Shown here piece after piece: positions 1 to 63,111 of a DNA stretch of 64,000 bases. The DNA is taken from the IMG/VR virus record IMGVR_UViG_3300037502_001322, positions 1 to 64,000 of that record. One strand, written 5' to 3'. Origin of the DNA: a virus. Under the pieces are notes generated by a model. That model ran no database searches, was not told where the DNA came from, and saw nothing but the letters and a program-made list of their open reading frames with translations. The position numbers and the translations under genes are program-made. The number at the start of each line of letters is the position of its first letter. Within the stretch, counting starts at the first letter, position 1.

Positions 1-242
1 AGAATACTAATCTCTTTGATGCACTTTGTCAATTGTTTCTGAACAAATTCTACATCTTGTTGGGCATAGTTAGTGTCTTCTGGTTGAAATTTAGAAGCTT
101 CACAATAGGCTGAATACATCTTCAACCCTTTCAGTTCACCATTATAAGATGTTATTTGGTTTGAAATTGATTGAATATAGAAAAGGAGAGCTTCACTCCC
201 CAAATCTTTAATATCATTAGTTGATTCTATTTGTTTAATCAT
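1..242 (-). CDS. hypothetical protein, truncated by the window edge (MIKQIESTNDIKDLGSEALLFY...)
   Basis: ATG at 242 overlaps the stop of the upstream ORF; frame is open to position 1. Confidence 0.6.
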   Translation of the reverse strand, partial: MIKQIESTNDIKDLGSEALLFYIQSISNQITSYNGELKGLKMYSAYCEASKFQPEDTNYAQQDVEFVQKQLTKCIKEISI

Positions 243-930
243 TTACGTAAACCTCAGACTCTTTGTATAATTCTCTTACCCAATAATGACCATCGGTTAT
301 CATTTTAAAATAATCATACTCTTCCATGGTTGGCTTCATCCAATCTTTAAAGTAATCTTGTAGGTCATAAGAGTTACCATTCAATATTGCTTTTAAAGTA
401 ATGAAATCAATTATCAAAGGAAAATTCTTATACCTACAAACACCATCTTTAACAAAACCAAGTCCCGTAGAGTAACCTTTACCCGTTAAAACTATTTGTT
501 CAGGGTAATTGTCTTCAATACTAAATACTGCATTTGGTAGTAATCTCGCTATGAAATTTTTGAAATTAAAATTACCAAAATTGAGGCCGCTTTTACTTGG
601 ATAATCTACAAGAATCTTACCGGGAACATTTTTGACACAATTATCTGCTTCTATAGTAGACAAAGAGTTTTTAATATTGCAATCTAAATCTTGGGCGATA
701 TGTGCCCAATGTTCACCCCATTCTTCAAATTCGTTAAATAAGGAGTCTACATCAGATAATTCCTTATCAATACTGCTAATAATAGAATTAGCTTCTGATT
801 CATAATTCTCATCAATAACTTTCATCAGATCTAATAGAGATTGTCTAATAGATCTTACCGTAGCATCTCTCTCAAAACTATCTGGTTTATCAACAACACC
901 AAATCTCTGTTCATCAGTTATCTTCCACAT
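235..930 (-). CDS. hypothetical protein with shared C-terminal YFxDWxxPTxEE module
   Basis: 231 aa ORF, AGGAG SD; contains DYFKDWMKPTMEEYDYFKMITDG near the C-terminus. Confidence 0.8.
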   Translation of the reverse strand: MWKITDEQRFGVVDKPDSFERDATVRSIRQSLLDLMKVIDENYESEANSIISSIDKELSDVDSLFNEFEEWGEHWAHIAQDLDCNIKNSLSTIEADNCVKNVPGKILVDYPSKSGLNFGNFNFKNFIARLLPNAVFSIEDNYPEQIVLTGKGYSTGLGFVKDGVCRYKNFPLIIDFITLKAILNGNSYDLQDYFKDWMKPTMEEYDYFKMITDGHYWVRELYKESEVYVND

Positions 931-941
931 TATTAAACTCC

Positions 942-2111
942 TTAGAAGTTACTTTCATTATCTTTTAGTAGATACTTAGGATCAAACACAGGTTTCTCTT
1001 TATAAAGAGTCTTCTTGCAATCAGGGTCAACCATCTCAAGATAGTCCATTGATACTTCATTCTGAGGAAGAAACAGCCTGAATTCTTTCCAGAAATGATG
1101 GTGTTTGATACTCCAACTTTTACCAAAATCTACTTTAGTAGAACCTTCCATATCTCCTGCCACCATTTCAAAATAGACACAAGAATACTCTAAATCTTCT
1201 TCGTTAGATTTGTTATCGTACCTCTTAAGAACAGTATAAGTCAAATTCTTTTTCTTAGCAGAATCTATTTTAGTTCTAAAATCAGAGAAGTTAGTCCACT
1301 TGACAGTAGTGTTGTCCCTACTATTAGGAAGAAGATTATAACTTGACTCTAATTTACAACTATCAACAACCAAGTCGATTGCTTCTGTTGGGTTAAATTC
1401 CCAACCTTCTCCTAATTTCTTTTCCAGTTGTTCTTTAAGTTTCTTAACTTTTAGACCATACATAGATCCAATGTGTTCTATTAATTTTTCGGAAGAACTT
1501 AAGTCAATCTTTGAAATCTCAGAATATACTTTAAGCTTTTCCGACAGTGGTGCACTGTACCCTCGAAATGAATACTTATCAAGACGCAAGGCGCTCACAA
1601 GAGGGTAATCTGTTCCTTTCCAGAACATCAGTTTACGTTGTCCTAAATGTTTAAAGAAATCCCTATGGTGAACAATAATTTTAGAGTGAAAACTATAGGC
1701 ACACATATTGATTGTAAAGTCAAAAGATTTGAAAATAGACTCACAACTGCTAACCTGATACCAATCAACTAACTCTCTGTCTTTAGGGTGGAACTTATAG
1801 TAAATAAGTTGCAGTATTATTCCTTGACTTTTGATAGTCATTGACTTATCAGTTATGAAATATTGTGCGTCAAAATTACTTGGGAGCGTAAAGATAAATT
1901 TATCTAACATCTCTTTAGATTCGAAATACAAATCAAAATCTGAGATTTCAGAAGAAGAGAAATAACTTGTCATTGCGCCACCAGCAAGAATAGCTTTTGA
2001 GGCAACAAGAGCTTCTTTAACGCTATCACTAAACGTGTTCTCTATCCTTTTAGTGAACTCATTATCTTCCATAATTTCTATGCTTTCTTGATTTTCTTTA
2101 AATTCTACCAT
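942..2111 (-). CDS. nucleotidyltransferase-superfamily protein (poly(A) polymerase/CCA head-like)
   Basis: LAGGA...SDFDLYF (hG[GS]x9-13DhD) and FDFTINM motifs. Confidence 0.65.
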   Translation of the reverse strand: MVEFKENQESIEIMEDNEFTKRIENTFSDSVKEALVASKAILAGGAMTSYFSSSEISDFDLYFESKEMLDKFIFTLPSNFDAQYFITDKSMTIKSQGIILQLIYYKFHPKDRELVDWYQVSSCESIFKSFDFTINMCAYSFHSKIIVHHRDFFKHLGQRKLMFWKGTDYPLVSALRLDKYSFRGYSAPLSEKLKVYSEISKIDLSSSEKLIEHIGSMYGLKVKKLKEQLEKKLGEGWEFNPTEAIDLVVDSCKLESSYNLLPNSRDNTTVKWTNFSDFRTKIDSAKKKNLTYTVLKRYDNKSNEEDLEYSCVYFEMVAGDMEGSTKVDFGKSWSIKHHHFWKEFRLFLPQNEVSMDYLEMVDPDCKKTLYKEKPVFDPKYLLKDNESNF

Positions 2112-2880
2112 TACTATTAAACTCCTTATTGAATTTCTCCACTAATTGATCAAAATAATCATCTCTAATATAGTCTTGAGTGTAGTCTTTATAGTTCGAC
2201 TTGTCAACAAATAAATTTCCTTTATGGAAACACCTTCCGTAAAAACAAATATTGAACAACTCTTTTACCTTTTGTTCGAATATGTTTAACGGACAGTTAA
2301 TAACCTTCTCATTAGCTTCTATTGGATAAATATCAGAGACCATCCACAGATAATCTATTTGATCGGATGATAACACACGACATTCTTCATTACCTTGTTG
2401 CTCTCTGTTTAGGTCAATCATATCGAAGACTGTATAAACATCAAACAGCCCAGCATAAACATTTGGGTTATTGATTAAGGATACCGCCCTACTTTTTACT
2501 TGTTGTGTTTTAGGTAAAACAATTAATTGGAATTGATTTAAATTAAACTGTCTTCTAAACATCACATTAAAATGAGTAGCTGACCCGTAAGGGTTTATAG
2601 AGTGATTGAATACTATCAACGTACCAATAGTTATAGTAGAGTTAGTTGCATAACTCTTTGGATGAAATTTAAAAGAAAAAGAGCCCCTTGATAGGGGCTT
2701 TGCAGTTTCTAACTCAACGTTCATTAATAATCTCCATATACTTTTCTTTAATCTTTTCCTGCTTCTCTTTGTCTTCAATAGATTCACACATGAAGAAATA
2801 ATCCCACTCGTCTGTTGTAGGTTCTGTTTGATTATTAAAATAACTTTTAGCTTGTGTTGCCAAACTGTGTAGACTTTCAA
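2098..2880 (-). CDS. hypothetical protein (true start probably the internal MNVELE, ~2721)
   Basis: ORF; GGAG precedes the internal ATG; 5' part overlaps 2714..3007. Confidence 0.6.
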   Translation of the reverse strand: MKVYTVWQHKLKVILIIKQNLQQTSGIISSCVNLLKTKRSRKRLKKSIWRLLMNVELETAKPLSRGSFSFKFHPKSYATNSTITIGTLIVFNHSINPYGSATHFNVMFRRQFNLNQFQLIVLPKTQQVKSRAVSLINNPNVYAGLFDVYTVFDMIDLNREQQGNEECRVLSSDQIDYLWMVSDIYPIEANEKVINCPLNIFEQKVKELFNICFYGRCFHKGNLFVDKSNYKDYTQDYIRDDYFDQLVEKFNKEFNSNGRI

Positions 2881-3007
2881 TTACAATTAAGTTCCCATCA
2901 GCAAGACCTTCAACCTTAGTTCCAAATAAATCTAATGAGAAATTGTGAGGATTGTAAGATTTACTGATATTTGTCATAATTAATCGCCTTACCGAAAGGA
3001 GCATCAA
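2714..3007 (-). CDS. small protein: tail-tube-like N-terminal fragment + shared C-terminal module
   Basis: SYNPHNFSLDLFGTKVEGLADGNLIVIE followed by SYFNNQTEPTTDEWDYFFM. Confidence 0.6.
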   Translation of the reverse strand: MMLLSVRRLIMTNISKSYNPHNFSLDLFGTKVEGLADGNLIVIESLHSLATQAKSYFNNQTEPTTDEWDYFFMCESIEDKEKQEKIKEKYMEIINER

Positions 3008-4442
3008 AGTTATTATTATCGTTAATGATGAACAATGTCTTTTGAGAATAAGGTTTAAATTTATTCTTTAGTTCTTGATTCATATTAAAGAAACCATCAG
3101 TGAATATAACCAACTGGTCAATCTTCTTGAGTTCTTCCAGTTTAGGGACAATACAACCAAGAGATGTCCCACCGCCTCCTTTCAATTGGAACGATTTCAT
3201 CTTTGTTAGATTAGATTGGTCATAAGTGTAAACATCATAAGCTTTAGTGTCCCAACAGAACACATTAATTTCAAAACAATTATATTGTTTAGTGATACCA
3301 GCAACTTCACTTAGCACTGTGTGCAATGCTTCTTGTGTCACCGACCCTGAACTGTCAACAGCAATAACCACAGAAACAGTTTCTTGTCTTGCTTTAGCTG
3401 GCAACACAATTTGTTGATTATAGTTCAATTGCCCAGACTCTTTCAAGTGTTTTGTCAGTGCAAAAGAACGACGATGGATTCGTTTATAATCGTGGTTGTG
3501 TTTAATCAAAGAAGGAATAACTTTCTTAAGATGCTTCTTCCAATTGATTTTAGGTTTCTTCCACTCCTTCATAATATCACGGATGTGAGAAGGTGTGCTG
3601 TCACCAGCATTCTGAGAAGCCATCTGAATATCAACTTTCATTTTATCAGAGGCTTTCTGATAGTCTTCTTTAGACATCTCAAACTTCTTGCCTGCAAGAG
3701 GATCAAGTCCTAACATCTCTTCCATAGGAGATTGAATAGAAGGTTTGTCTTGTGAGGAAGAAGGCATATGATAAGAACCTTTAGAACTTGCACATTTCCC
3801 GTTGTCCTCTGAATCTTTATTATCTTGTCGTTCTTTCTTCAACAAATCATAGACTTGTTCAGAAGTCAAATCATCATATTGTTCACTGTAGAGTCCTGCT
3901 GCAATAATAGGAGATTTAGTGATAGCTGCATTATAATCACCTTTGTACCAATCTTTCACAATTTGACGGTTAATCTTATAATCCCCAGCTTCATTATAAA
4001 GTTCAGGATCTCTTGTTCCTCGTCTCAGGAAATGTTCATTAACAATATGGTCAATCTCATGCCTGAACACAAACATGATATCATTAACATTGCAACCTTT
4101 CTTTTTAGTTTCAAGAATTTCTTTCAGTTCGTCATATTGTTCTTGTGTGACTCGTTGTTCAGTCAACATATGGTTCAAACGAGAAAGACTTTCATTATAA
4201 CGAACTTCAGGCATACCAGCAACAAATTCAGGATTAAACCAAATAGAGAAACCATCTGTTCCGGCGGTAGGAACAAAAGAATAATCTAACTTTAACTTTT
4301 GGTTCATTGCAAGCTGAGCATAGAAGGGATGTTCTCTAAGCATATCAAGGCGAGCCTTGCGAATCATCTTGATAGCTTTGTCTTCAAGCGCTTTAATAGA
4401 ATCTTTTTCTTCTTGACTCATAAGTTTCATTTTAGTATTCAT
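2961..4442 (-). CDS. metallopeptidase-like + VWA domain protein (DUF2201 type)
   Basis: TAGTDG, HEIDH zinc motif, C-terminal MIDAS DSSGS...GGGT...FTDG. Confidence 0.85.
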   Translation of the reverse strand: MNTKMKLMSQEEKDSIKALEDKAIKMIRKARLDMLREHPFYAQLAMNQKLKLDYSFVPTAGTDGFSIWFNPEFVAGMPEVRYNESLSRLNHMLTEQRVTQEQYDELKEILETKKKGCNVNDIMFVFRHEIDHIVNEHFLRRGTRDPELYNEAGDYKINRQIVKDWYKGDYNAAITKSPIIAAGLYSEQYDDLTSEQVYDLLKKERQDNKDSEDNGKCASSKGSYHMPSSSQDKPSIQSPMEEMLGLDPLAGKKFEMSKEDYQKASDKMKVDIQMASQNAGDSTPSHIRDIMKEWKKPKINWKKHLKKVIPSLIKHNHDYKRIHRRSFALTKHLKESGQLNYNQQIVLPAKARQETVSVVIAVDSSGSVTQEALHTVLSEVAGITKQYNCFEINVFCWDTKAYDVYTYDQSNLTKMKSFQLKGGGGTSLGCIVPKLEELKKIDQLVIFTDGFFNMNQELKNKFKPYSQKTLFIINDNNNFDAPFGKAINYDKYQ

Positions 4443-4828
4443 TACATATTACCCTCAAAATATTCATCACCAAAAGCATAATAACAGTTTTCTTCCGACC
4501 AAGGTAACCTAAAACCTTCTACCATTTCAAGATAATTCTGTTCCTCTTTAGATGGTCTCTTCCAGTTTTTGAAATAAGAAACCCACGAATACATAAGAAT
4601 ATCTTTCCCGTAGACTGTCAAGAAACTTTCGTTGTAAGGATGAACAGTAAACCCGTAAGTAACACCCAGAGCACCCCACGTTTTGTTAATGCCGTTCCAC
4701 CAAGAAGGTTGCCAATGGTCTCTGCGAGGGTGATACATTTCCTTTCTTTCCTCAAAATCGTTATGTTGAAACTTATCCAACCAATTTTTATTCGCTAAAT
4801 AGAAGTCATTGTCAGTTTCTACTATCAT
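4442..4828 (-). CDS. hypothetical protein with shared C-terminal module; paralogue of 5081..5425
   Basis: NKNWLDKFQHNDF N-terminus; SYFKNWKRPSKEEQNYLEMVEGFRLPWSE. Confidence 0.8.
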   Translation of the reverse strand: MIVETDNDFYLANKNWLDKFQHNDFEERKEMYHPRRDHWQPSWWNGINKTWGALGVTYGFTVHPYNESFLTVYGKDILMYSWVSYFKNWKRPSKEEQNYLEMVEGFRLPWSEENCYYAFGDEYFEGNM

Positions 4829-4832
4829 TTTA

Positions 4833-5093
4833 TTAAACTCCTAATATTCCACAAATTAACATAGACCATAGACAAACAATAGCACCAAAGGACATAAGAT
4901 TCAAGTAAACCGAACCATATTTCTCATTCTTAGATTTACAATCTTTATAATTTAGGATTCTAACAAATTCTTTCTGTCCAAGGTAATAATAAAAGAATAC
5001 CAGCCAAACAGATAATTGAGTCCCGACAATAGCAAAAGATTTAGTTAACTCATAAGCAGAAAAGAATTGTTCAATCATTGTTAATCCTCCCAA
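4833..5093 (-). CDS. small membrane protein (2 TM)
   Basis: two hydrophobic segments; GGAGG before MIEQ. Confidence 0.6.
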   Translation of the reverse strand: MGGLTMIEQFFSAYELTKSFAIVGTQLSVWLVFFYYYLGQKEFVRILNYKDCKSKNEKYGSVYLNLMSFGAIVCLWSMLICGILGV

Positions 5094-5425
5094 ATAAAGG
5101 GTTCGTCTTCACTCCAAGGAAGACGATAGCCATTAACTAATTCATAATAACCCATCTCTTCTTTGGTTGGTCTTTTCCAGTTAAGGAAATATTCCTTTAT
5201 GTTATTCTTATCCTCACTCTCCCCATAATTTAACGCTATTAAATTCCCGTTTTTATTAACTTCTAAAGAATATTCATTAGATAATACATACAATTTAGAA
5301 GGGTCTCTGTGTATATAATCAATATTACCGTCCCACCATGCAGGGACATCATCGATTCCATAATCATTGTGTTCAAATTTATCTAGCCAACTCTTATTCA
5401 GTTTTACAAACATATGAACATTCAT
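5081..5425 (-). CDS. hypothetical protein with shared C-terminal module
   Basis: NKSWLDKFEHNDY; EYFLNWKRPTKEEMGYYELVNGYRLPWSE. Confidence 0.8.
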   Translation of the reverse strand: MNVHMFVKLNKSWLDKFEHNDYGIDDVPAWWDGNIDYIHRDPSKLYVLSNEYSLEVNKNGNLIALNYGESEDKNNIKEYFLNWKRPTKEEMGYYELVNGYRLPWSEDEPFIWED

Positions 5426-5479
5426 ATTCTATAATCTCCAATATACATATAACCATAGATTAATCATAACACAAACAAA

Positions 5480-5514
5480 GAAAAAGGCAACCATCTTTTC
5501 AGATAGTCGCCTTA
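5480..5514 (-). terminator. probable intrinsic terminator after the AAA gene
   Basis: aaggcaaccatc/gatagtcgcctt stem with U-tract on the - strand. Confidence 0.5.
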
Positions 5515-5529
5515 AAATTAATATTTTAT

Positions 5530-6681
5530 TTATTCAGAGAAGCAATCTTGAAGACTCATATATTTAACAATAATCTTCTTCATGCTTCCAAGTTGAGCAG
5601 CTTTAGCTGAAAGCATTGTCCTAGTTTTAGCTTCACGTATTGTGTCATTAACTTTACGAACTGTCGCAACGAACATCTCAACTTCTTGCCCAAAAGACTC
5701 AAGTAAGAAGTGGAAGTAGTTATCCAACTTAACCATGAAATCTTCAGTTGGTAGAACATCTTCAGGTTTTTCCATATGCTCTTTAATCAGAGACAAACAA
5801 CCTTGAGTGATCATGTACATATGGGAAGGTTCATAATCGTCTGCTTCATATTTCTTAACTCGACCTTCAAGGATATCAAACGCTGAAGGAAGTTTACCAT
5901 TAAGTTGATAAGAAGCTTTCAGCTCAATCATTGGTGCTGAGCCGACCAAACCTTGAATGCCAATCCAACCAAGACGTTCACTAATCAGTTTCTTATCCAT
6001 CTCATGCAACACACCAGAAACAGCTTCCCAGCTACGGGCAGTGCAGAAAGAAGGTTCATCATTCTGAGGATCTGTGTTAAAGAATTCAGGATTAGAGCGC
6101 AACAGACCTACCACCGCAGGATGAATGTTATTATCTGAAGCATAACCTTCCAACCATCCTTCAACGTCAGGTTTAACTTCAACAATCATTAGACGGTTAG
6201 CCAAAGGACTAAGGAGTTCATAACCTGCACCATTATCGAACACACGGTTAGCAGCAAGAGAAATTCGTGCTTTCTCAGGGAAATGAAACTCACCAATGCG
6301 ACGATCCAAACAAATCTGATAGCAAACATGTTGCATTGCTGGTGTTCCGTGAAGAACCTCATCCAGAAAGATGATGCCCTCCCAATCAGGATCTTTAGGC
6401 CAGAAACTAACAAAAGCATAGACTGTTTCAACTGAACCGTCTTCTTGTGTCACAGGAACTTGAATACCTGAAAGGTCTGTTGGTTCTTTATCTGACACAC
6501 GAACATCAATAATGTTTCCATTATAACGTTCTTGAGCATATTGATTAACAATATGGCTCTTCCCAGACCCTGCTGGACCAAGGACAAGACAAGGACGTTT
6601 AACACGAAACCCCAATTCAATCATTTCAGGAATATCTTCAACACCGATTTGATTAGTGAAAATATAATCTTGTGAACTCAT
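5530..6681 (-). CDS. MoxR-like AAA+ ATPase
   Basis: Walker A GPAGSGKS, Walker B IIFLDE, sensor AANR, LANR arginine finger; near a VWA partner. Confidence 0.9.
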   Translation of the reverse strand: MSSQDYIFTNQIGVEDIPEMIELGFRVKRPCLVLGPAGSGKSHIVNQYAQERYNGNIIDVRVSDKEPTDLSGIQVPVTQEDGSVETVYAFVSFWPKDPDWEGIIFLDEVLHGTPAMQHVCYQICLDRRIGEFHFPEKARISLAANRVFDNGAGYELLSPLANRLMIVEVKPDVEGWLEGYASDNNIHPAVVGLLRSNPEFFNTDPQNDEPSFCTARSWEAVSGVLHEMDKKLISERLGWIGIQGLVGSAPMIELKASYQLNGKLPSAFDILEGRVKKYEADDYEPSHMYMITQGCLSLIKEHMEKPEDVLPTEDFMVKLDNYFHFLLESFGQEVEMFVATVRKVNDTIREAKTRTMLSAKAAQLGSMKKIIVKYMSLQDCFSE

Positions 6682-6711
6682 TAGCTATTCTCCTTTGTTT
6701 AACTTAAACTA

Positions 6712-7254
6712 TTATCTCTTAAGAAATACATGATTGTCAATCTTTTTAACTCTAACCATGCTGTCTGACCACTTCGGTTTCACTTTATAAGGATTGAAAT
6801 AATGGTCAGCATTTCCGACCACATTCTTCCCTTCACCTTTGATAACTTTACTCGCTATTCTGTAAGCTGTCAACCTAGATTTGAATTCTCTCATTTTTAA
6901 ATCTTCAACATCTTGCCAGAAACTAAACTGAGCTTTTTGTTTAACAACCCCAACTATTGTATCAGGCCAATGCTTAGAAACAACCCTATTTTCAATAACA
7001 TTCGCAATAGCATAAAGACCATCAATACTTTCTGACCTACCTTCGTGGTACAGAGTCAATGCTAACATTTCAAGGTCTTGTTGTGGTGATCTTGGAATAT
7101 TAACAGGTTCATAGTAGTAAATCCAGTCTGACGAATAGTTATATTCTGTTTGAACATTAGCAGAAACTAAATTAGAGAAAGCTAATGAAGTTACAAAACC
7201 TACAGATAAAATAAAAGCAGGGATTTTAACCCTGCAAATAAAGTTAGTGTTCAT
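6712..7254 (-). CDS. SleB-like cell wall hydrolase (Hydrolase_2)
   Basis: LALTLYHEGRSE...AIANVIENRV...WPDTI...QFS...HYF...IDNHVF; N-terminal signal. Confidence 0.9.
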   Translation of the reverse strand: MNTNFICRVKIPAFILSVGFVTSLAFSNLVSANVQTEYNYSSDWIYYYEPVNIPRSPQQDLEMLALTLYHEGRSESIDGLYAIANVIENRVVSKHWPDTIVGVVKQKAQFSFWQDVEDLKMREFKSRLTAYRIASKVIKGEGKNVVGNADHYFNPYKVKPKWSDSMVRVKKIDNHVFLKR

Positions 7255-7265
7255 TGTCAGTCCCT

Positions 7266-7547: not shown

Positions 7548-7674
7548 TTGTTATACTCCTTTATTATCTGATTACTCAGCCTACACACTTGGTTGCCTAA
7601 ACTATTCACCTAACACCATATTGATATCATCTCTCAAATCTCTGAGACTGTCAAGATCAAAAACACAATTAACT

Positions 7675-7893: not shown

Positions 7894-7973
7894 TTGTAGT
7901 TCTCCTTATTATCTTGATTTAAAATATTAACATTCATAGTTTATCTTAAATTCATACTGACATACTATAGCAC

Positions 7974-8498
7974 TTAAAATGCCTTGTCAATATCTTTTCT
8001 ATTCTCTACGATAGGGAGTGGCTGACCTTCACTCCAGATCAAATCAATATCAGTTACCATTTTAAAATAATTAAGTTCGTCTCGTGTAGGTCTTGTCCAA
8101 TCTTGAAAATATACAGGAAGATGAATTTCCTCCTGATTTGATGTAATTATTCTGCAATGATTGTTACCATAGTCGTACACCATTCCTTGTTTAATTGAAC
8201 CTCGATCTCCTTGGTACACTGCAAGATAACGTGTAGATTCGTTATGAAAAAGTTCAGGATAAGGCATACCTAATGAGTCAAGAAACCTTACCATCAAAGA
8301 AATAACTTCACCGAACTCTCCTTGCAACATCCATTCATCTCGTGAGTGTAAATGGACACCGAAAGTCTTAACATAGAGGGGTTCATAAGGCTCTAAATTA
8401 ATTTTACTTATAGGTAAATTATCTTCGTGATAATACCTGTTCATCCAACCTTCCGTGAAATTAAACACCTTCATCTGTTCTTCATAACTCATAATCAA
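7974..8498 (-). CDS. hypothetical protein with shared C-terminal module
   Basis: VYFQDWTRPTRDELNYFKMVTDIDLIWSE. Confidence 0.8.
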   Translation of the reverse strand: MIMSYEEQMKVFNFTEGWMNRYYHEDNLPISKINLEPYEPLYVKTFGVHLHSRDEWMLQGEFGEVISLMVRFLDSLGMPYPELFHNESTRYLAVYQGDRGSIKQGMVYDYGNNHCRIITSNQEEIHLPVYFQDWTRPTRDELNYFKMVTDIDLIWSEGQPLPIVENRKDIDKAF

Positions 8499-8600: not shown

Positions 8601-8682
8601 CACACCTAAAAACGATTTCTAGGTCATACCCCAAGCCTACCTACAGGGGCACTGTTAGAGTCGCTTAGAATACACCAGAATC
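8601..8682 (-). repeat. ~75-bp hairpin leader element, copy 1
   Basis: reverse complement aligns with 62641..62713 and 63161..63250 (tagaaatcgttt core, (a/c)ccct...(a/g)gggt stem). Confidence 0.8.
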
Positions 8683-9359: not shown

Positions 9360-9389
9360 TTGACTTGGTGTAAAACCACGTGGTACAAT
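9360..9389 (+). promoter_or_regulatory. sigma70-like promoter
   Basis: TTGACT-N18-TACAAT with TG extension. Confidence 0.6.
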
Positions 9390-9439: not shown

Positions 9440-9832
9440 ATGTCTTTGGAATATGAAAGGTACCAATCGTTTAACAAATTCTTAGAAGATAACGGAGATT
9501 GGTGTTTTATGCCTGCAATAGGGTTCAACACGATTTACCCTGTATGTTTTATAAATAAAACAGAAGATTTTATTGTTAGAGTAGAAGCTTTCTCGCTATC
9601 TAACCTTAATAGTATTCTTTGTATAAATGATAGAAATAGCTTACTTATGTTCACTGACACTGAAGGGTGGTCTTCAAAAAGTGTAATCCTTGTAGGAAAA
9701 GACCTTAACAGGGGTACAGATGATGTGTGTAGTATGTTTGAGGATTGGAAGACTCCAACACAAGAAGAGAAAGACTATTTTAAAATGATTTATGGTATGA
9801 CAATACCGTGGAATATTTTTGTCTGTAATTAA
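9440..9832 (+). CDS. hypothetical protein with shared C-terminal module
   Basis: GAGGT SD; MFEDWKTPTQEEKDYFKMIYGMTIPWN. Confidence 0.8.
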   Translation: MSLEYERYQSFNKFLEDNGDWCFMPAIGFNTIYPVCFINKTEDFIVRVEAFSLSNLNSILCINDRNSLLMFTDTEGWSSKSVILVGKDLNRGTDDVCSMFEDWKTPTQEEKDYFKMIYGMTIPWNIFVCN

Positions 9833-10535: not shown

Positions 10536-10834
10536 ATGAAAAATCAATATGGGTGGGAAGTTGGAGAGATTGGTATAGTAACTGAAGAAAGTGGATTTTC
10601 TAAAGGAAGTATTGTACAATTCGAAACAGATGACGGGACTGACACCCCCCTTTATGGAAGCTATTGAGTGGTAATTGCGAATATAGATTATCTGAAGGAA
10701 ATCAACCGGGAGCATATTGTTTTTATGATATTGTAATCAACCTATCAGGTTATTTCAAGAATTGGAAAAATCCGACACAAGAAGAAAGAGACTATTTCGA
10801 AATGATTTATGGAATCGATATTAAAGATATTTAA
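10536..10834 (+). pseudogene. frameshifted member of the shared C-terminal module family (shift at C6 tract 10645-10650)
   Basis: AAGGAG SD + ATG 10536; frame stops after DTPLYGSY; -1 frame continues LWKLLSGNCEY...YFKNWKNPTQEERDYFEMIYG. Confidence 0.7.
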
Positions 10835-41119: not shown

Positions 41120-41611
41120 TTAACCAAGAGAGTTGGGGGTGATTGAACCGAGAGCACCAAGACCTGCACCAATAGCAGATTGACCCATAGATGCATTAGA
41201 TACCCAAATAGTCCATTCAATTACAGGAATACCATCACCATCTACAGTATAGTCACCTTGTTGCATAACGATACCTACAGGAGAGATAAGACTCAAACCA
41301 GTCGGGTCTTCAAAGTAAACAGGGAAACCTACCAAACGGGAAGCTTTAGAAGCAGTTACCCATGAAGCAAGAATAGCATTAGTTTCTTTCGCAGTTTCTT
41401 GGATTTGAATAGTGATAGTGCCGGATTCATTTCGGTTAATACCAACCGAGAATTCACCATCAGCACCAACCATAGTGTTGAAATGATCTTCGTTTCGAGA
41501 AATAGTTATCTTAGAACCTTCTGCGAAACCATAAGGTTGCCACCCACCAAGCAACAACTTGCAGGATGCTGAGTCGTACGCACGAGGAAGTGTCAGATAC
41601 GGATTAGCCAT
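41120..41611 (-). CDS. tail tube protein (DUF3277-like)
   Basis: YD....LGG...GFAEGSKITI...VGADGE...SGTITIQ. Confidence 0.85.
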   Translation of the reverse strand: MANPYLTLPRAYDSASCKLLLGGWQPYGFAEGSKITISRNEDHFNTMVGADGEFSVGINRNESGTITIQIQETAKETNAILASWVTASKASRLVGFPVYFEDPTGLSLISPVGIVMQQGDYTVDGDGIPVIEWTIWVSNASMGQSAIGAGLGALGSITPNSLG

Positions 41612-56531: not shown

Positions 56532-56594
56532 AATTTATTCTCCTTTGTTTATTTGACTTCTATTTAATCCACTAACACTTAATCTTCAATAATC

Positions 56595-56873: not shown

Positions 56874-56889
56874 GAGTGTCTCCTATATT

Positions 56890-57072
56890 TTACTTTGCAA
56901 TAGCTTCCTTAACTATGCGGTAAATGCAGTATACCCCAAACCCATACCAAAACCACTCAGAAGTTAACATCTCTGCTATATAGTAAAGATAGCTAACCGG
57001 TTCACTGAAGTCTATAATATTGACGTCTTCAACCATATCTTGGAATAGCTTAACAAGTTTTTCTTCTATCAT
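56890..57072 (-). CDS. small membrane protein
   Basis: AAGGAG SD; C-terminal TM. Confidence 0.6.
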   Translation of the reverse strand: MIEEKLVKLFQDMVEDVNIIDFSEPVSYLYYIAEMLTSEWFWYGFGVYCIYRIVKEAIAK

Positions 57073-57102
57073 GTCAGGTTCTCCTTTTGTCTAACTGGAC
57101 TA

Positions 57103-57131
57103 ATTATAGAACATTGCCAAGAGACTGTCAA
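57103..57131 (-). promoter_or_regulatory. consensus sigma70 promoter
   Basis: TTGACA-N17-TATAAT. Confidence 0.75.
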
Positions 57132-57163
57132 CACTTAAAACGCTATTTTGATAAATTTAGTGA

Positions 57164-57200
57164 ATTTCAGGCAAAAGAAAACCCGGCACTGAGGCCGGGC
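57164..57200 (-). terminator. intrinsic terminator of the tRNA region
   Basis: GC stem + U-tract; near-identical to 8728..8763. Confidence 0.8.
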
Positions 57201-57235
57201 GAATAAACATAGGAGAATGTTATGAATGTAAGATA

Positions 57236-57280
57236 TAAGAGATTTAGATAAAGATTTAGATAAAGATTTATATGAAGATA
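57236..57280. repeat. 12-bp tandem repeat (agatttagataa, about 3 copies)
   Basis: direct reading. Confidence 0.7.
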
Positions 57281-57463
57281 ATCATCAGCATTGCACTGAC
57301 TTGTTGAGAATGATGATTGTTATTATGAGAGAGGTTTATTATTATTATTTATTATCTTAAATAACTTAAACACATTTCAGTTAGTGTAGAGGTAGCGAAC
57401 CAACTAACCGGAGTAAGTGCGACTCCCACCGTAACATAACGGTCCACGGTGAATTCTTTTATA

Positions 57464-57539
57464 TGGTGCAGGCAAAAGGCCTCGAACCCTTGACATCCAC
57501 ATTACAAGTGTGGCGCTCTACCGACTGAGCTATACCTGC
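57464..57539 (-). tRNA. tRNA-Thr(UGU)
   Basis: cloverleaf, CCACA-CTTGTAA-TGTGG, TTCGA, encoded CCA. Confidence 0.93.
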
Positions 57540-57549
57540 TTATCTATTT

Positions 57550-57625
57550 TAGATATCGTTGAATCTATATCAACTAACGTTGGATTTTACAGCTAACGCT
57601 GAATCTGTACCAACTAACGTTGGAT
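57550..57625 (-). repeat. ~20-bp-period repeat of the last codons of gene 57614..57928
   Basis: ATYCARCGTTAGYTG x3 plus one degenerate copy. Confidence 0.7.
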
Positions 57626-57928
57626 AGCAACTTTAGAAATCAAAGGAATAGATTCATTAAGAGCAGGAGTTTCAGAATCTTCTTCCTCTTGCATCATCTC
57701 TTCCAGAATCTTATTTCCACGTTCAATGATAAACTTGAATGCTTGTTGTCGTGTGGCGTGTGTTGCATCTTTATCTGTCATCAAATCAACCATTCCTTGA
57801 ATGGCATTAAGATAATGAGCAACAATCATTTCATCACCTTGAAGAATAGCTTCCTGAGCTTGACGTTCAAGAGACTCTACTCGTGAAGGACGTCCACGGC
57901 CTTTCTTTTTCTTTGTGTAAATTCCCAT
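57614..57928 (-). CDS. hypothetical protein with N-terminal AT-hook; candidate terminase small subunit
   Basis: KKKGRGRPSR, helical body, late-type promoter at 57974. Confidence 0.55.
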   Translation of the reverse strand: MGIYTKKKKGRGRPSRVESLERQAQEAILQGDEMIVAHYLNAIQGMVDLMTDKDATHATRQQAFKFIIERGNKILEEMMQEEEDSETPALNESIPLISKVAIQR

Positions 57929-58017
57929 AAAGACTTAAACCTTTAATTTTAATTATAAACTCTAACTGAATAAAGTTTATCATAAATAAAGTTTAAAATC
58001 AATATTTTAGAATTAGG

Positions 58018-58159
58018 AAAGAATGTTGTTGGAAGTTTCTTTACAACTCCTCGCATACCGAGGGACCTATTACTTGAGACCTACATTGCCGCTTTTCTTC
58101 TTAGTAACGGTTGCATCTTCAAAACCACTTAGCAGTGCACAGACTTGACAACATTCTTT
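58018..58159 (-). ncRNA. candidate ~140-nt structured RNA in the tRNA cluster
   Basis: perfect 12-bp terminal helix plus three internal stems. Confidence 0.45.
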
Positions 58160-58206
58160 ATTAAATATTAAGATATTAAGTAGGTATAATATCTTTTTGA
58201 ATTATT

Positions 58207-58292
58207 TGGTGGCTCGTGAGAGATTCCAACTCTCAATCCCATAGGGCGTTTGGGCTTAAACCAAATGTGTATCGCAGTTCCACCAACGAGCC
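58207..58292 (-). tRNA. tRNA-Leu(UAA), atypical D/T loops
   Basis: GGCTCGT/ACGAGCC acceptor, TTTGG-TTTAAGC-CCAAA, long variable arm, CCA. Confidence 0.85.
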
Positions 58293-58308
58293 GATAATCT
58301 TTTACAGT

Positions 58309-58385
58309 TGGTCCACCACGCAGGACTCGAACCTTCAACTGTCCGCTTAGAAGGCGGATGCTCTATCCTATTGAACTAGTGGTGG
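58309..58385 (-). tRNA. tRNA-Arg(UCU)
   Basis: TCCGC-CTTCTAA-GCGGA, TTCGA, CCA. Confidence 0.92.
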
Positions 58386-58396
58386 TAATAAAACTT

Positions 58397-58424
58397 ATTA
58401 TACAGAAATCCTTTTCAATGTCAA
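58397..58424 (-). promoter_or_regulatory. tRNA cluster promoter
   Basis: TTGACA-N16-TATAAT just upstream of tRNA-Arg. Confidence 0.75.
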
Positions 58425-58433
58425 CATCCTATA

Positions 58434-58601
58434 TTATTTATTTTCTTCTTTGCTTGCCTCAATAGCACGACCTTGTTCAAGAGCTTTCTTTCTTGCACGT
58501 TCTATTGATTCTTTATTTCCTTGCTCGAAAATGTAACAAAATCCCTCAGGCCCCCATTTGAATCCGGGTTTGCCATCTTTCTGACAATTTTGAATTGGCA
58601 T
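58434..58601 (-). CDS. small hypothetical protein (55 aa, MPIQNCQKDGKPGFKWG...)
   Basis: GGAGG SD, overlap with upstream stop; below ORF-track cutoff. Confidence 0.7.
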   Translation of the reverse strand: MPIQNCQKDGKPGFKWGPEGFCYIFEQGNKESIERARKKALEQGRAIEASKEENK

Positions 58602-58798
58602 TATTTGTCCTCCTCTTTTTCGTAATAACCTGTTTCCATTCTAACCTTCTCCTGTAAAGATTTCAATACTTCAAACATTTCTTCTTTAGTCATTTCTTTA
58701 GTTAATGTAGAACCTAAATCTGTTTTAGATTGTCCTCGGCTAAGAAGAACTTCATCCATTCGTTGTTTGTAGTCTTCCCATTCTTCAAGCATTTGCAA
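58601..58798 (-). CDS. hypothetical protein
   Basis: overlapping operon ORF. Confidence 0.6.
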   Translation of the reverse strand: MQMLEEWEDYKQRMDEVLLSRGQSKTDLGSTLTKEMTKEEMFEVLKSLQEKVRMETGYYEKEEDK

Positions 58799-58982
58799 CG
58801 CCTACTGTATAAGTATCTCCATTAAATTCAATAGAACCTTTTACAAAAACTTTAACAGGAAGTTTACTTACATTCGTTTTAAAAGTTCTAACTTCTTTTG
58901 TTCCGCTTAAAATAACTTCCATAAGCTCGTGAGGCTTAGCTTTAATAATTTCTTTGAATCTTTTGCTTGTGTAAGGTTTCAT
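58785..58982 (-). CDS. hypothetical protein
   Basis: AAGGA SD. Confidence 0.6.
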   Translation of the reverse strand: MKPYTSKRFKEIIKAKPHELMEVILSGTKEVRTFKTNVSKLPVKVFVKGSIEFNGDTYTVGVANA

Positions 58983-58990
58983 AATATTCC

Positions 58991-59233
58991 TTATTTATTC
59001 TTGTTAACACCAAACTTAGTTTTCTTGCTGCGACCGAGAAGTTCAAGCAGACTTGCAACAATCAACACCCCGAACATAAATCCAATAACTACCAAGAGAG
59101 GTCCATACAGTGGTAGCGAAACAATCCACCAGCTCCAAGTGATATGACCTGTCAATTTCAGTGTCATAAAAATCAGAAACATTGCTAAAAAGAACCAAGA
59201 GCCTGCGCTATTTGTTTGTTTAACTTTAACCAT
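58991..59233 (-). CDS. small membrane protein
   Basis: LIFMTLKLTGHITWSWWIVSLPL motif. Confidence 0.8.
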   Translation of the reverse strand: MVKVKQTNSAGSWFFLAMFLIFMTLKLTGHITWSWWIVSLPLYGPLLVVIGFMFGVLIVASLLELLGRSKKTKFGVNKNK

Positions 59234-59298
59234 TATATTTATTCTCCTATAGGTTTAGATGTGACCTTATAATACGTATATAGCAATACTCTGTAAAA

Positions 59299-59748
59299 TT
59301 ACTTTTTATACCTAAACCTATTAGCGCAACTGATTGAACAGAAAGGGCCATTATTACTTCTAGAATATTTTTGGTCCTTACTTAGTACAAATTCTTTTCC
59401 ACAATAACAACAAGGTTTGATTACATCAGGACTTCTTTTTCTGACCCGCTTAGAACCCTTTGATATATAAAAAAGACACTGGTCTTTTTTAGAAACTACT
59501 TTTAAATTCTGAATATCGAAATTATCTAAATTTCCATCAAGATGCACCACACCTTCACTGTTTTTAAGTTTTCTTTGTAAGAAACTTTCTACTATAGCTT
59601 TAGAATAGGACACCTGTTTATTCTTCTTAGGGGAAGAATAAAGGTATACATAAACCCAACCATCAGACCTTTTATAGGGACCGCTTACAGATTTATATTC
59701 AGGCCACAGCTCTAAAAGGTCTTCAACTATAACCAGATTTTCCATCAC
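59299..59748 (-). CDS. HNH endonuclease with C-terminal zinc finger
   Basis: VVHLDGNLDNFDIQNL; CCYCGKEF...FCSISC. Confidence 0.78.
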   Translation of the reverse strand: MMENLVIVEDLLELWPEYKSVSGPYKRSDGWVYVYLYSSPKKNKQVSYSKAIVESFLQRKLKNSEGVVHLDGNLDNFDIQNLKVVSKKDQCLFYISKGSKRVRKRSPDVIKPCCYCGKEFVLSKDQKYSRSNNGPFCSISCANRFRYKK

Positions 59749-60107
59749 TATTCTCCTATATCTTTAAGGTTAGAATGTTCATCCCAAGAATTAGCACCAC
59801 TATCATCACAAAGATTCCCGTGAACATATTCAGGTTGGTAGGTTGTATCATAAGCAGCACTCAAACAACCTGAACATAAGTCTTCACCTAATTGTGCCAC
59901 AACAAATCGTTTACCGCAAGCCTGACAACTAAAATAAAACCCATTCTTTTCTTTGTTAGATTCGTGCTTGTACTTAATTGTTAGACCACGTTCTTTAGTT
60001 CGTTTGCTAATCTTAGGTTCAATCACAACTTCATCATCAATATAATCATTAATTGTTTCATTACCAATATCTACTATTTCTTTAACTTGTTTTTCATTAT
60101 CTTGCAT
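59748..60107 (-). CDS. zinc-finger hypothetical protein
   Basis: CQAC...CSGC. Confidence 0.65.
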   Translation of the reverse strand: MQDNEKQVKEIVDIGNETINDYIDDEVVIEPKISKRTKERGLTIKYKHESNKEKNGFYFSCQACGKRFVVAQLGEDLCSGCLSAAYDTTYQPEYVHGNLCDDSGANSWDEHSNLKDIGE

Positions 60108-60195
60108 CAGTCCCTTCTTTAAAATTAGTTGATTAATTTAACATATGTTTAATCTATCATAGAAGAATTCAAAATGCAAGATAAATATTCAATTA

Positions 60196-60660
60196 TCAGT
60201 TAAATTTGAAATCTTCGCATGTGTAACAAGCTGCTAAGTTATCACCCTTCTTGCATTTAGCTCTTGCTTCTCTCCATTTAGATTTCTGTTCGTACTCGTA
60301 GTCATGAACTTTCTTATAGTTCTCTTCGAAATTACCTAACATTGTTTCATCTAAATTATACCTGTTACCTTCATTTATTTTCTCAATAAGATCTTTAAAC
60401 TTTTTAGTGTTATATTTGTACCAAGTATTCTTACCCTTAACTCTCCACTTACCTTTCGGTGTGATTATAAACTTATCAAACAGTACAAACTGATTAGGCA
60501 CTGTGTACTCACAGACGTTTTCAGGTTTAACACCACACAGTAAGCTGAGAATCTTAATACTCTCAGTTCGAACGTAAGACACATCTTTATCGAAGTAATG
60601 TTCTTCTAAATAAATTTGATGTTTCACATATTTAGTTACCATTCTCTCTAATTCAGTCAT
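60196..60660 (-). CDS. hypothetical protein
   Basis: AGGAG SD; KGKWRVKGKNTWY. Confidence 0.7.
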   Translation of the reverse strand: MTELERMVTKYVKHQIYLEEHYFDKDVSYVRTESIKILSLLCGVKPENVCEYTVPNQFVLFDKFIITPKGKWRVKGKNTWYKYNTKKFKDLIEKINEGNRYNLDETMLGNFEENYKKVHDYEYEQKSKWREARAKCKKGDNLAACYTCEDFKFN

Positions 60661-60676
60661 ATCATTTAATCTCCTT

Positions 60677-62035
60677 TTAATGCTTCTTGTCTATTTTGCA
60701 ATTCTTATCTGTCTTTAGAACATCTTTATAAGCTTCTCGCATTGTTTCACGGAGCATATCTTCGAGGTGTGCTTTGACCACGAAACTATCATGCCAAGGA
60801 AGGCATATTTCATTTTCCCACAAAAATTTATCCATAATGATTTCAGCAATTTTGCTGTCTATCATCTGAAATTTAACACCAACATCCTCAAAGAAGTAAT
60901 CAGAGATCCTATAATTCAAATCCATAAGCTCTTGACAAATTCTTTTAGTTGATATAGGCCCATCTATCCCATAATACCAACAATTTTCAAGATCCTTCCT
61001 ATTCCCAGAAATCCATTTAGATTTTCTTTCTTTGCCTATTTCAAACCCTAATGCTCCTGCTGCTTGCTCAATACTTCCGCTATTGAAACAACACAACAAT
61101 GCAAACTTACATACATTCCTGAAAGGATCGTAATTAGGTTGGTTAAATTCTTTTCTGAAACTATTAACCTTATTTTCATCAATGGGTATCAATGATTTGT
61201 TAGTAAGACTGTAAGGTTTAAACCCGTCAGGCATTTTATACCCAATCAACTCATAAGCAATACTAGCATGTAAAGATGAATAGTCAAGTTCAACAGTAGG
61301 TTCATCATCAATCTTAATTAATGGTCTAACTAAAGAACTTATAGTTTGAAGCTTCCCTGTGGTATCATAGAACCTACCACCTTTGGTAATATCTTCAGTA
61401 AACACACGCTTGTATGAAAGAAGAGGAAGTGTATGTTCACCAAGAGAAATCTTAGTATGCATTAGTTGTTCATTCTGTTTATCTACCACTCTACGAATCT
61501 CCTCTATACCCTTAACACCTTTGGTGGATTTATTAACTTTAGTTTTTCTTTCCCTAATCTCTACACTTTCTATACCTTCAAGAAGGTTAACTTTACCTTG
61601 TTTAAGATTATCCCATAGTGCTATATACGATTCATTCATTACTGTTACACTGGGTTTAAACTTAATTGCTCTACCCTTAGCATTGTACTCTACAACACCA
61701 CCTTTTTCAATAGTAACATAGCCTATATCCTCAAGAATATCTAAGAGAGCTACCATTCTACTATAAGCTAATCCTTGTTTGTTGTGACTATATTTATTCT
61801 TCATTAAAGGGATAATCAAAGATTTAGCATTACCTTTTAATGCTCTTGCTGTGTTAGTTACTAAAGACCTTACTTCTTTCTCATACTTCTTACTTGAAAC
61901 AGAAATAAGGTGCATAACTACACTCTCATACCATCTACTCTTATTGTAGAATAAATTAAAGTGAGTAGAATAAAAGAACATATAACTATAATTATCTTCA
62001 AACTCTATCTTATCTTTGTTTATATTCACATTCAA
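60677..62035 (-). CDS. family A / T7-RNAP-fold polymerase-like protein
   Basis: GGRFY, VELDYSSLH (motif A), RNVCK (motif B), Q.IDS, LPWHDSF (motif C). Confidence 0.7.
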   Translation of the reverse strand: MNVNINKDKIEFEDNYSYMFFYSTHFNLFYNKSRWYESVVMHLISVSSKKYEKEVRSLVTNTARALKGNAKSLIIPLMKNKYSHNKQGLAYSRMVALLDILEDIGYVTIEKGGVVEYNAKGRAIKFKPSVTVMNESYIALWDNLKQGKVNLLEGIESVEIRERKTKVNKSTKGVKGIEEIRRVVDKQNEQLMHTKISLGEHTLPLLSYKRVFTEDITKGGRFYDTTGKLQTISSLVRPLIKIDDEPTVELDYSSLHASIAYELIGYKMPDGFKPYSLTNKSLIPIDENKVNSFRKEFNQPNYDPFRNVCKFALLCCFNSGSIEQAAGALGFEIGKERKSKWISGNRKDLENCWYYGIDGPISTKRICQELMDLNYRISDYFFEDVGVKFQMIDSKIAEIIMDKFLWENEICLPWHDSFVVKAHLEDMLRETMREAYKDVLKTDKNCKIDKKH

Positions 62036-62208
62036 TATAACTCCTATAATCTATCTAATAATATAATCTAATATACCAAAAATATAACACACTACCATAG
62101 TAATTAGTACACCTACATCGCGTAAACGTATGATACATAAAGGAAAAACACGATTTGATAGGGGGTTATTCTCCTAAAAACAACTCCCATTAAAGGCTCA
62201 TCTAACGT

Positions 62209-62442
62209 TCAAGCCGTATCTTCTTTATACTCAAGAATTACGTCTTCTACAGTCAGGTTTAGCTTACCAAGATACTCCTCCAACTTATCTACACTGACTC
62301 CTTTACCTTCGGTTTGAAACAGAGCGTAAATCTGTTGCCTATAGGTGACTCCGATCAGTTCACCGAACTTAGCTTGTGACATACCGAGACGATCCATTTC
62401 ATCCTTCAGTTTACTTACGATAATTTTCTTAATATTGCTCAA
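62209..62442 (-). CDS. XRE-family helix-turn-helix protein
   Basis: GMSQAKFGELIGV..QQIY; GGAGG + TTG. Confidence 0.8.
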   Translation of the reverse strand: MSNIKKIIVSKLKDEMDRLGMSQAKFGELIGVTYRQQIYALFQTEGKGVSVDKLEEYLGKLNLTVEDVILEYKEDTA

Positions 62443-62576
62443 ACTTCCTCCAAAACATTAGGTACACACAGTTTATAACAAAACAGGTACAATGTAAAGT
62501 ATTTTATATGTCAACCTTTAGATTGACTTGATTTAGTCTACAACTAACAACAAGCACAGTCAAGCCAAATTTCTTG

Positions 62577-62604
62577 TTGACACTAAAACAGGTTGCGCTA
62601 TCTT
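62577..62604 (+). promoter_or_regulatory. sigma70-like promoter upstream of leader element copy 2
   Basis: TTGACA-N16-TATCTT. Confidence 0.6.
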
Positions 62605-62640
62605 AAGATAAGTTTCTATAACGATAATATGAAGCGATAT

Positions 62641-62713
62641 GACGCATTCTGAGAGATTCTAACAGCAACCCTATAGGTAGGCTTAGGGTAGGGCATAGAA
62701 ATCGTTTATGGTG
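62641..62713 (+). repeat. ~75-bp hairpin leader element, copy 2
   Basis: matches the reverse complement of 8601..8682. Confidence 0.8.
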
Positions 62714-62757
62714 CTGTATAACACGCTTAGTCTTAGCTTAAGGAGAAGGTCTAAGGT

Positions 62758-63111
62758 ATGTTCTATGAAGAGTTTTATGAACCAAACAGAGTGTGGTTGG
62801 ATAGTGCAACTTCAGAGAAGGTTTCTAAAGGTGCTTACTTTACTGAGTGGAAGTTCTTGACTGAAGGTAGTGATGCAATTTTCCATGTTTCTCACAGTCC
62901 TGCTACGGTAGTCATAGATTTTGAGAACAACGGTAAATATGGTAGGTTTGTGGCTTGTAATTTCAGAGAAGACCCTACTAACAGAAAACTACTTGCATTG
63001 CAATACTTTGAAGACTGGACTAAACCAACTGAACAAGAGAAAGATTACTTTGAGATGATTTATGGTGTTAGAATTCCTTGGAGTGTTGACACACCTTTTG
63101 TTATGATGTAG
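62758..63111 (+). CDS. hypothetical protein with shared C-terminal module
   Basis: QYFEDWTKPTEQEKDYFEMIYGVRIPWS. Confidence 0.8.
   Translation: MFYEEFYEPNRVWLDSATSEKVSKGAYFTEWKFLTEGSDAIFHVSHSPATVVIDFENNGKYGRFVACNFREDPTNRKLLALQYFEDWTKPTEQEKDYFEMIYGVRIPWSVDTPFVMM

Follow-up and report, generated by a model that had tools for sequence, protein, structure and literature searches.

A recurrent module of about 30 residues in small acidic proteins of an uncultured phage, and a family with constant ends and a hypervariable middle

The first 64,000 nucleotides of virus record IMGVR_UViG_3300037502_001322 (hereafter, the window) come from a single virus contig of 103,675 bp with a G+C content of 36%, which IMG/VR classes as linear and ~74% complete. 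We report that a module of ~30 residues, with the pattern YFxDWxxPTxEExDYFxMIxGxxIPW, recurs in small proteins encoded by this genome, in a total of 16 copies in 15 genes, 7 of which lie outside the window. Five of the window genes, 4442, 5081, 7974, 9440 and 62758 (genes are named here by their first coordinate), form one family, termed T1, in which the N-terminal helix and the C-terminal module are constant and enclose 50-100 hypervariable, beta-rich residues. With slightly more confidence than doubt, we read these proteins as small binders that have diversified as a family and would be made early, the constant parts acting as a frame or docking surface and the target depending on the variable part.

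A module maintained as a peptide

When the six-frame translation of the window was searched with a strict regular expression, 8 matches were obtained, as compared with a mean of 0.000 and a maximum of 0 in 200 first-order Markov shuffles. All eight copies that a preliminary description of the sequence had listed are present, each in its place. A hidden Markov model (HMM) built from the 8 window copies alone detected 7 more open reading frames (ORFs) between 88,804 and 93,985 of the genome, with E values of 9e-10 to 4e-4 against 1,948 six-frame segments; one of them, 92070..92606, is a single gene with two module copies. A 16-copy profile run against the whole genome returned the 16 copies and one weak extra. 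This seventeenth module-like match (64344-64397, E 0.003, GQEAIDYLKMVLSNTIPEEV) lies just beyond the window, near the N-terminus of a 403-aa protein (ORF 64233..65441), and may be due to chance. "Echoes" of the module had also been suspected in 942..2111 and 2098..2880; with the 8-copy HMM the former was not significant (E 0.98) and the latter was not reported at E<=10.

As previously described, copies are found on both strands; they always fall in an open frame. Among the 8 window copies, the same codon was used at only 49% of the identical degenerate residues and nucleotide identity was 65%. Synonymous codons vary from copy to copy, with CCA, CCT, CCG or CCC for Pro and ACC, ACA or ACT for Thr. 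Because the codons are scrambled, we conclude that selection acts on the peptide and not on a DNA or RNA element. The idea that a nucleic-acid element, be it a repeat, a recombination site or a signal for regulation, just happens to be translated has nothing in its favor beyond the repetition itself and, given the scrambled synonymous positions and the presence of copies on both strands and always in frame, is for practical purposes already refuted. The eight window proteins all have an acidic pI, between 4.3 and 5.0, and their aromaticity ranges from 0.10 to 0.22, the genome median being 0.10.

The T1 family and the other architectures

In a pairwise test of the parts that precede the module, only the 4442/5081 pair was detected (z 9.1; next best 4.3; 105 pairs). 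A profile search of 1.84 billion cluster representatives provided ~40 further proteins of 56-232 aa. The alignment of these relatives revealed a second conserved block, located at the N-terminus, F-x-E-x-N-K-x-W-L, in which W12 is invariant in 32 sequences. An HMM of this N-motif, built solely from sequences outside this genome, placed 5081, 4442, 62758, 7974 and 9440 as the top five of the 1,948 six-frame segments (E 1.7e-7 to 0.083), and in all five genes the match is at the N-terminus. From this ranking we conclude that the five genes are one full-length family, and we define T1 by the presence of both the N-terminal F-x-E-x-N-K-x-W-L and the C-terminal module. The N-motif HMM did not detect the motif in 235, 2714, 10536 or the seven genes at 88-94 kb. 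The earlier view that, the 4442/5081 pair apart, the N-terminal parts look unrelated is thus wrong for the five T1 genes, which have the N-motif in common; for 235, 2714 and 10536 no relation was detectable. Likewise, ordinary paralogy, which the preliminary description had named as the outcome that would undo its proposal of a shuffled module if it extended to all members, was found for the five T1 genes only.

The mean pairwise identity within T1 is 26% in the N-motif, 7% in the middle and 48% in the module, the value for the middle being a lower bound since gap columns were scored as mismatches. The same pattern was seen between 5081 and its relative P0016, which are 77% identical in the N block, 11% in the middle and 75% in the module. 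The eight window genes with the module, and two neighbors from the leftward gene array described below, are as follows.

235..930, minus strand: 231 aa, pI 4.6; module at 259-372, with the tail variant G-H-Y-W-V-R-E-L
2714..2977, minus strand: 87 aa from the ATG at 2977; the ORF extends to 3007 if a TTG is used
2961..4442, minus strand: DUF2201 metallopeptidase-VWA protein, leftward array
4442..4828, minus strand: T1, 128 aa; N-motif at ~4754-4804 (E 1.4e-6), module at 4481-4594
5081..5425, minus strand: T1, 114 aa; N-motif at ~5360-5410 (E 1.7e-7), module at 5096-5209
5530..6681, minus strand: MoxR-type ATPase, leftward array
7974..8498, minus strand: T1, 172-174 aa, with a longer middle; N-motif at ~8418-8465 (E 0.031, rank 4 of 1,948), module at 8016-8129
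9440..9832, plus strand: T1, 130 aa; N-motif at ~9470-9508 (E 0.083, rank 5 of 1,948), module at 9716-9829
10536..10834, plus strand: third architecture, beta-rich N-terminus (YGWEVGEIGIV...); module at 10733-10831, without the PW tail
62758..63111, plus strand: T1, 117 aa; N-motif at ~62761-62805 (E 2.6e-4), module at 62986-63099

The three remaining window genes differ from T1 in the parts before the module. The N-terminal ~190 aa of 235, whose orthologue is P0037, are unrelated to the T1 family. For 2714, the ATG at 2977 is probably the start and is preferred over 3007, in agreement with the database gene call P0023 (87 aa). Its module (2747-2860) is degenerate, with W replaced by Q and without the G..PW tail; a relative, P0044, has MTNISK... 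and DYFFMCESI in common with it. The possibility that 2714 is a tail-tube fragment was rejected, as BLASTP gave no alignment to the product of 41120-41611 (minus strand). Gene 10536, which had been taken for a single ORF, is interrupted by a -1 frame change within six consecutive C residues (10645-10650): the frame 10536-10664 corresponds to residues 1-42 of the relative P0013 (E 3e-15) and the frame 10643-10831 to residues 40-96 of the same protein (E 1e-25). Both P0013 and another relative, P0046, are unbroken; the frame change may reflect a homopolymer assembly error, a pseudogene or a programmed shift.

The second cluster comprises the seven module genes at 88,804-93,985 of the genome (locus L001 4804-9985), outside the window. 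Here the module occupies the middle of the protein and is followed by 16-50 residues. The module is thus not always C-terminal, the position that had been ascribed to it; in one of the 88-94 kb genes it is doubled, and it was never found at the N-terminus. Three genes of this cluster, 92070 (a tandem double unit of 178 aa), 92639 and 93701, together with metagenomic relatives, make up a subfamily, T2, consisting of a beta-hairpin, the module and then a long helix. When the flanks of seven subfamilies were compared with each other by hhalign, all probabilities were <1%, with alignments of 2-32 sequences each. In all, the module occurs with flanks lacking detectable relation in at least 6 architectures, and the lengths of the members range from 87 to 288 aa. 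The earlier claim that the module is joined to unrelated parts is therefore half right: it fails for the five T1 paralogues, and in 235, 2714, 10536 and the second cluster the flanks show no detectable relation.

Structures of one member of each subfamily were predicted with AlphaFold2, using a 32-sequence alignment for 5081 (T1) and 10 sequences for 92639 (T2). The T1 model (pLDDT 80, pTM 0.71; ~90 for the N helix and the module and ~65 for the middle) opens with an N-terminal helix (residues 2-13), followed by four strands, a short turn at E-Y-F and a loop; a second helix then spans 87-97 (T-K-E-E-M-G-Y-Y-E-L-V) and leads into an extended tail. The T2 model (pLDDT 88, pTM 0.78) comprises a hairpin, a turn-loop-helix (helix 51-61) and a long helix at 63-88. 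Both contain an identical local turn-loop-helix for the module, which is accordingly modeled as a short turn (x-Y-F), a loop (D-W-x-x-P) and an alpha-helix, followed in many members by a G-x-x-I-P-W-S-E tail. In the alignment, the Glu of the module is invariant and the Pro-Thr near-invariant, a pattern that would fit a helix N-cap with a Thr-x-x-Glu capping box, as judged from what is generally known of helix caps; Y-F-x-M-I would be the hydrophobic face of the module helix. The module had been proposed to be a portable tag. In both models it appears instead to be folded, as a strand-turn-helix element whose helix has a capping box, and not to be a loose tag.

Compared with solved structures, the predicted T1 model gave a best Foldseek E of 0.6 and a best VIA-align Z of 3.1, and the predicted T2 model a best Foldseek E of 0.9 and a best VIA-align Z of 3.7. 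Neither model has a fold match among these structures, which for predicted models with pLDDT 80 and 88 is not proof of a new fold. In a library of viral models the top matches were weak; among them were uncharacterised proteins from Erwinia phage Hena1 (276 aa) and from Pectobacterium phage phiTE.

Relatives in Certrevirus and elsewhere

Weak matches of PHROG profiles to the module led to the Certrevirus phages CR3, phiTE, CB7 and PcCB7V. The profiles of phrog_12463 and phrog_12009 match window copies at exactly the position of the module. Pectobacterium phage PcCB7V encodes four proteins with a recognisable module (E 1e-4 to 2.5e-3 per genome), which fall into four separate PHROGs, 12463, 12009, 12410 and 12113, all of unknown function and not linked to each other in the PHROGs database. 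CR3 and phiTE gave four module matches each, and rV5 and KB57 gave none. Each of these Certrevirus families has one recognisable module copy, for example HFECWATPTEEEIELFDVLHPGANW and MFDDPWRPTFEELDMFQMLYG, so that the module occurs in 4 copies per genome in Certrevirus, compared with 16 in the phage studied here. The likeness between them is limited to the module, plus ~40 residues in front of it for gene 235, and the T1 N-terminal motif is absent in Certrevirus.

The genes of this phage are not members of phrog_12463: in three of them, only positions ~153-250 of the 279 in the profile match (E 1.7e-4 to 4e-3), and the alignment of 235 with a true member of that family covers 77 residues (E 0.002). 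The likeness to phrog_12463, a family of 280-aa proteins whose 24 records all come from Certrevirus-type phages and are all annotated as hypothetical, is due to the shared module and not to family membership. Gene 235 matched two PcCB7V proteins by BLASTP (E 0.002 and 3e-4), and the alignment with Certrevirus proteins extends over the module and the ~40 residues before it and includes a common tail variant (H-Y/F-x-W-V/L-R-x-L); 235 is a distant relative of the C-terminal region of phrog_12463 and phrog_12113 proteins. According to the passages on CB7 gene regions (PMC7344957), the phrog_12463 gene of CB7, CB7_123, lies in gene region 3 (CB7_104-143), described there as the likely early region, with many short hypothetical ORFs and a concentration of sigma-70-like promoters. 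The same passages assign virion morphogenesis mainly to ORFs of region 1; CB7_55, in region 2, is named as the exception, and CB7_251 is also given as structural, the virion proteins numbering 26 in all (PMC7344957).

The preliminary description had not recognised the module as a named family, and our searches agree with it. A Pfam-A hmmscan of the 8 window proteins and 2 neighbors found nothing on the module, the best unrelated matches (E>=0.015) being far below the cut-offs, and Pfam found no domain in the four Certrevirus module proteins. The module profile gave only chance ferritin matches (E~1) among PDB sequences; as reported above, neither predicted model had a fold match. No description of the motif was found in the literature searched. 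Among 5.8 billion proteins there was no form fused to a named domain, all matches being <=232 aa and without a Pfam domain. The ~40 further cluster representatives are all small and unnamed, and the close relatives are singletons. When the source of 15 relatives was looked up, 14 proved to come from sequencing-run assemblies and 1 from a JGI metagenome record; P0048 is on an assembly of 77 kb, P0011 on one of 9.5 kb, and both P0044 and P0050 are listed on contigs of 27,897 bp, which probably are identical. Searches of 50,697 phage records by megablast with the first 12 kb and by tblastn with gene 62758 gave no match, and when IMG/VR, JGI metagenome contigs and GTDB genomes were scanned for the pattern of the T1 alignment, no relative was confirmed. 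The module was also absent from the five phages nearest by DNA polymerase (Vibrio 1.170.O, helene 12B3, vB_CoeS_P1, Pseudomonas PPSC2 and Klebsiella 05F01), in a search that recovered this genome's own copies as a positive control.

Gene neighborhood and candidate roles

Five of the module genes (7974, 5081, 4442, 2714 and 235) belong to a single long array that is read leftward, on the minus strand. The same array holds a SleB-type hydrolase, the MoxR ATPase, a small membrane ORF, the DUF2201 metallopeptidase-VWA protein and a nucleotidyltransferase-like protein. Gene 5081 is downstream of the MoxR gene and is the first gene past a terminator-like hairpin and a promoter-like site; 4442 sits between the small membrane ORF and the VWA gene, and 2714 is directly downstream of the VWA/DUF2201 gene. 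The SleB-type cell-wall hydrolase (6712-7254, minus strand; Pfam Hydrolase_2, E 1e-24) has a hydrophobic N-terminus and is encoded away from the structural genes. The 86-aa ORF at 4833-5093 (minus strand) has two hydrophobic stretches and its product is probably a small membrane protein. On either side of it are 5081 and 4442, the two module genes that resemble each other most, and beyond these the MoxR and VWA genes. Between the module genes 2714 and 235, 942-2111 (minus strand) encodes a protein of 389 aa with a GG...DxD nucleotidyltransferase-type N-terminus, which matched phrog_18122 (E 5e-42) and, less strongly, the "nucleotidyltransferase" family phrog_1614; Pfam gave no match. Synteny of this gene with Certrevirus was considered and rejected, since its product is not similar (E 0.21) to the PcCB7V enzyme that adjoins a module gene. 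The 88-94 kb cluster begins just after an HslV-like gene, 87501..88571 (Ntn/proteasome-type, Pfam E 9e-4).

Strong sigma-70-like sites were predicted in the intergenic DNA before 9440 (TTGACT-18-TACAAT, at 9360-9389), 5081, 7974 (8573-8545) and 88804 (TTGACA-17-TATAAT). Gene 9440 is the first gene after its site, and the observation that several copies stand behind promoters is borne out, as a prediction, for 9440, 5081 and 7974. A conserved non-coding element (CCCTRTAGGTAGGCTTRGGGTA...TAGAAATCGTT) is present at 8627-8648 (minus strand) and 62669-62690 (plus strand), inside conserved blocks of ~80 nt located 70-130 nt upstream of the T1 genes 7974 and 62758, with zero occurrences expected by chance. 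Rfam gave no match to the leader region, and the element may be a shared leader or regulatory site of the two genes.

On the binder reading, which we hold to be somewhat favored, the module would be the most conserved piece of a superfamily of small, acidic, aromatic-rich phage proteins, whose genes lie in accessory regions and are probably early. The constant parts, that is the N helix and the module, would build a small frame or a common docking surface, the variable part would give each paralogue its own target, and the set of paralogues would amount to a diversified binder repertoire for host take-over or counter-defence. We propose this because of the turn-loop-helix, the second T1 helix, the hypervariable middle, the acidity, the copy number and the position among small accessory ORFs, some of them behind host-type promoters; the placement of CB7_123 in the likely early short-ORF region, as given in the passages on CB7 gene regions (PMC7344957), was also counted in its favor. 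Early expression, binding and which half does what are inferred. Several points weigh against the proposal: the contact between the N helix and the module is deduced from joint conservation and model confidence only, and the low identity of the T1 middle is partly an alignment artefact. Moreover, because the subfamily alignments are shallow, undetected N-terminal homology is weak evidence of non-homology. Finally, the promoter scan was not enriched overall (50 compared with 49.8 in shuffles), so that only their positions make the sigma-70-like sites plausible.

Alternatively, the module could be a portable docking unit that is recombined onto unrelated cargo and handled in every case by one partner, for which the phage MoxR ATPase with the VWA-metallopeptidase, two HslV-like peptidases and a host hub protein are candidates. 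We consider this, the reading of the preliminary description, distinctly less probable than the binder reading; it would apply to the non-T1 architectures. The number of architectures (at least 6, with flanks lacking detectable relation), the C-terminal, central or doubled position of the module, its distribution over four separate PHROGs in Certrevirus and an identical stretch, PTEQEKDYFEMIYGVRIPWS, on different N-termini in related uncultured phages are all consistent with such a unit, as are the location of 4442 and 5081 between the MoxR and VWA genes and that of the 88-94 kb cluster right after the HslV-like gene. However, 5 of the 8 window genes are full-length paralogues that require no shuffling, and the models predict that the module belongs to the folded core and is not a free tail. 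Homologues of MoxR were found in 735 phage records, including phages without the module (such as KB57 and rV5). A single-sequence search, run with no positive control, did not find a homologue of the HslV-like protein in the module-bearing Certrevirus phages, nor in rV5 or KB57. The lack of any fusion to a named domain among the 5.8 billion proteins also counts against this reading. A variant that combines docking with target choice, in which the T1 proteins are interchangeable adaptors whose frame hands a bound host or defence protein to a shared phage machine (MoxR/VWA-metallopeptidase or HslV-like), appears improbable; if true, it would mean targeted removal of host proteins through interchangeable adaptors.

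It is rather unlikely, if less so than that adaptor scheme, that the whole set, with 235, 2714, 10536 and the 88-94 kb genes among its members, makes up an ordinary fast-evolving paralogous family with a single fold of which only the helix region is still recognisable. A beta-rich stretch precedes the module in every member, all members are small, those of the window are acidic, and the T1 middle diverges fast enough to leave 11% identity between otherwise close orthologues. On the other hand, the T1 N-terminal motif is absent from the other members, the long helix that follows the module in T2 is not found in T1 and the helix that precedes the sheet in T1 is not found in T2. The range of lengths (87 to 288 aa) and the flank profile-profile probabilities, all <1%, point in the same direction.

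The module is very unlikely to be a packaging or virion-targeting signal like the capsid targeting sequence of the T4 internal proteins, a short segment of ~10 residues that is N-terminal and is cleaved in the prohead. A general analogy speaks for it, in that a short segment is shared by otherwise unlike small phage proteins in both cases. Unlike the T4 signal, the module has ~30 residues, is predicted to be folded and is C-terminal or central, being non-terminal in half of the genes. The genes are also located in small-ORF accessory regions that are probably early, some of them behind sigma-70-like promoters and far from the structural genes, and CB7_123 lies in region 3, outside the regions that the passages on CB7 assign to virion proteins (PMC7344957).

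Two further systems can be compared with the one described here. Poxvirus ankyrin/PRANC (F-box-like) proteins occur as many paralogues per genome with a constant C-terminal module of ~30-40 residues and a variable remainder. The analogy is one of layout only: there is no similarity in sequence or fold, the proteins studied here have no Pfam match of any kind, F-box-like or PRANC profiles included, and their variable part is not a repeat domain. Peptides that tether proteins to AAA+ ATPases, such as ssrA, the XB tail of SspB and the tail by which NorD docks on the NorQ MoxR ring, are short, unstructured and located at the extreme terminus; the module, by comparison, has ~30 residues, is predicted to be folded (pLDDT >90) and is followed by 11-50 residues.

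As a kind, the family is a familiar one, namely an expanded, fast-evolving family of small phage accessory proteins. The host-takeover module of SPO1 and the hyperplastic regions of T4 are likewise runs of small, fast-evolving genes, apparently with host-type promoters and mostly annotated without function. We know of no report of a conserved folded module, or of constant ends with a hypervariable middle, in such early-gene clusters of SPO1 or T4. What is new is the module itself, which is not in Pfam, the PDB or the literature searched, and whose carrier families PHROGs leaves unconnected; a module profile would join these four PHROGs. Two features stand out: the constant ends and hypervariable middle of T1, and the reuse of one segment, predicted to be folded, in at least 6 architectures and in two distant phage lineages. 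Since the module occurs, in weaker form, in Certrevirus phages that are in culture and amenable to experiment (phiTE, CB7 and CR3, from Pectobacterium and Cronobacter), what it may bind can be addressed at the bench. Small accessory or early genes are the largest unexplained part of phage genomes, and here 15 of them in one genome are tied together by a single segment, with a layout in T1 that suggests an arms-race family of binders.

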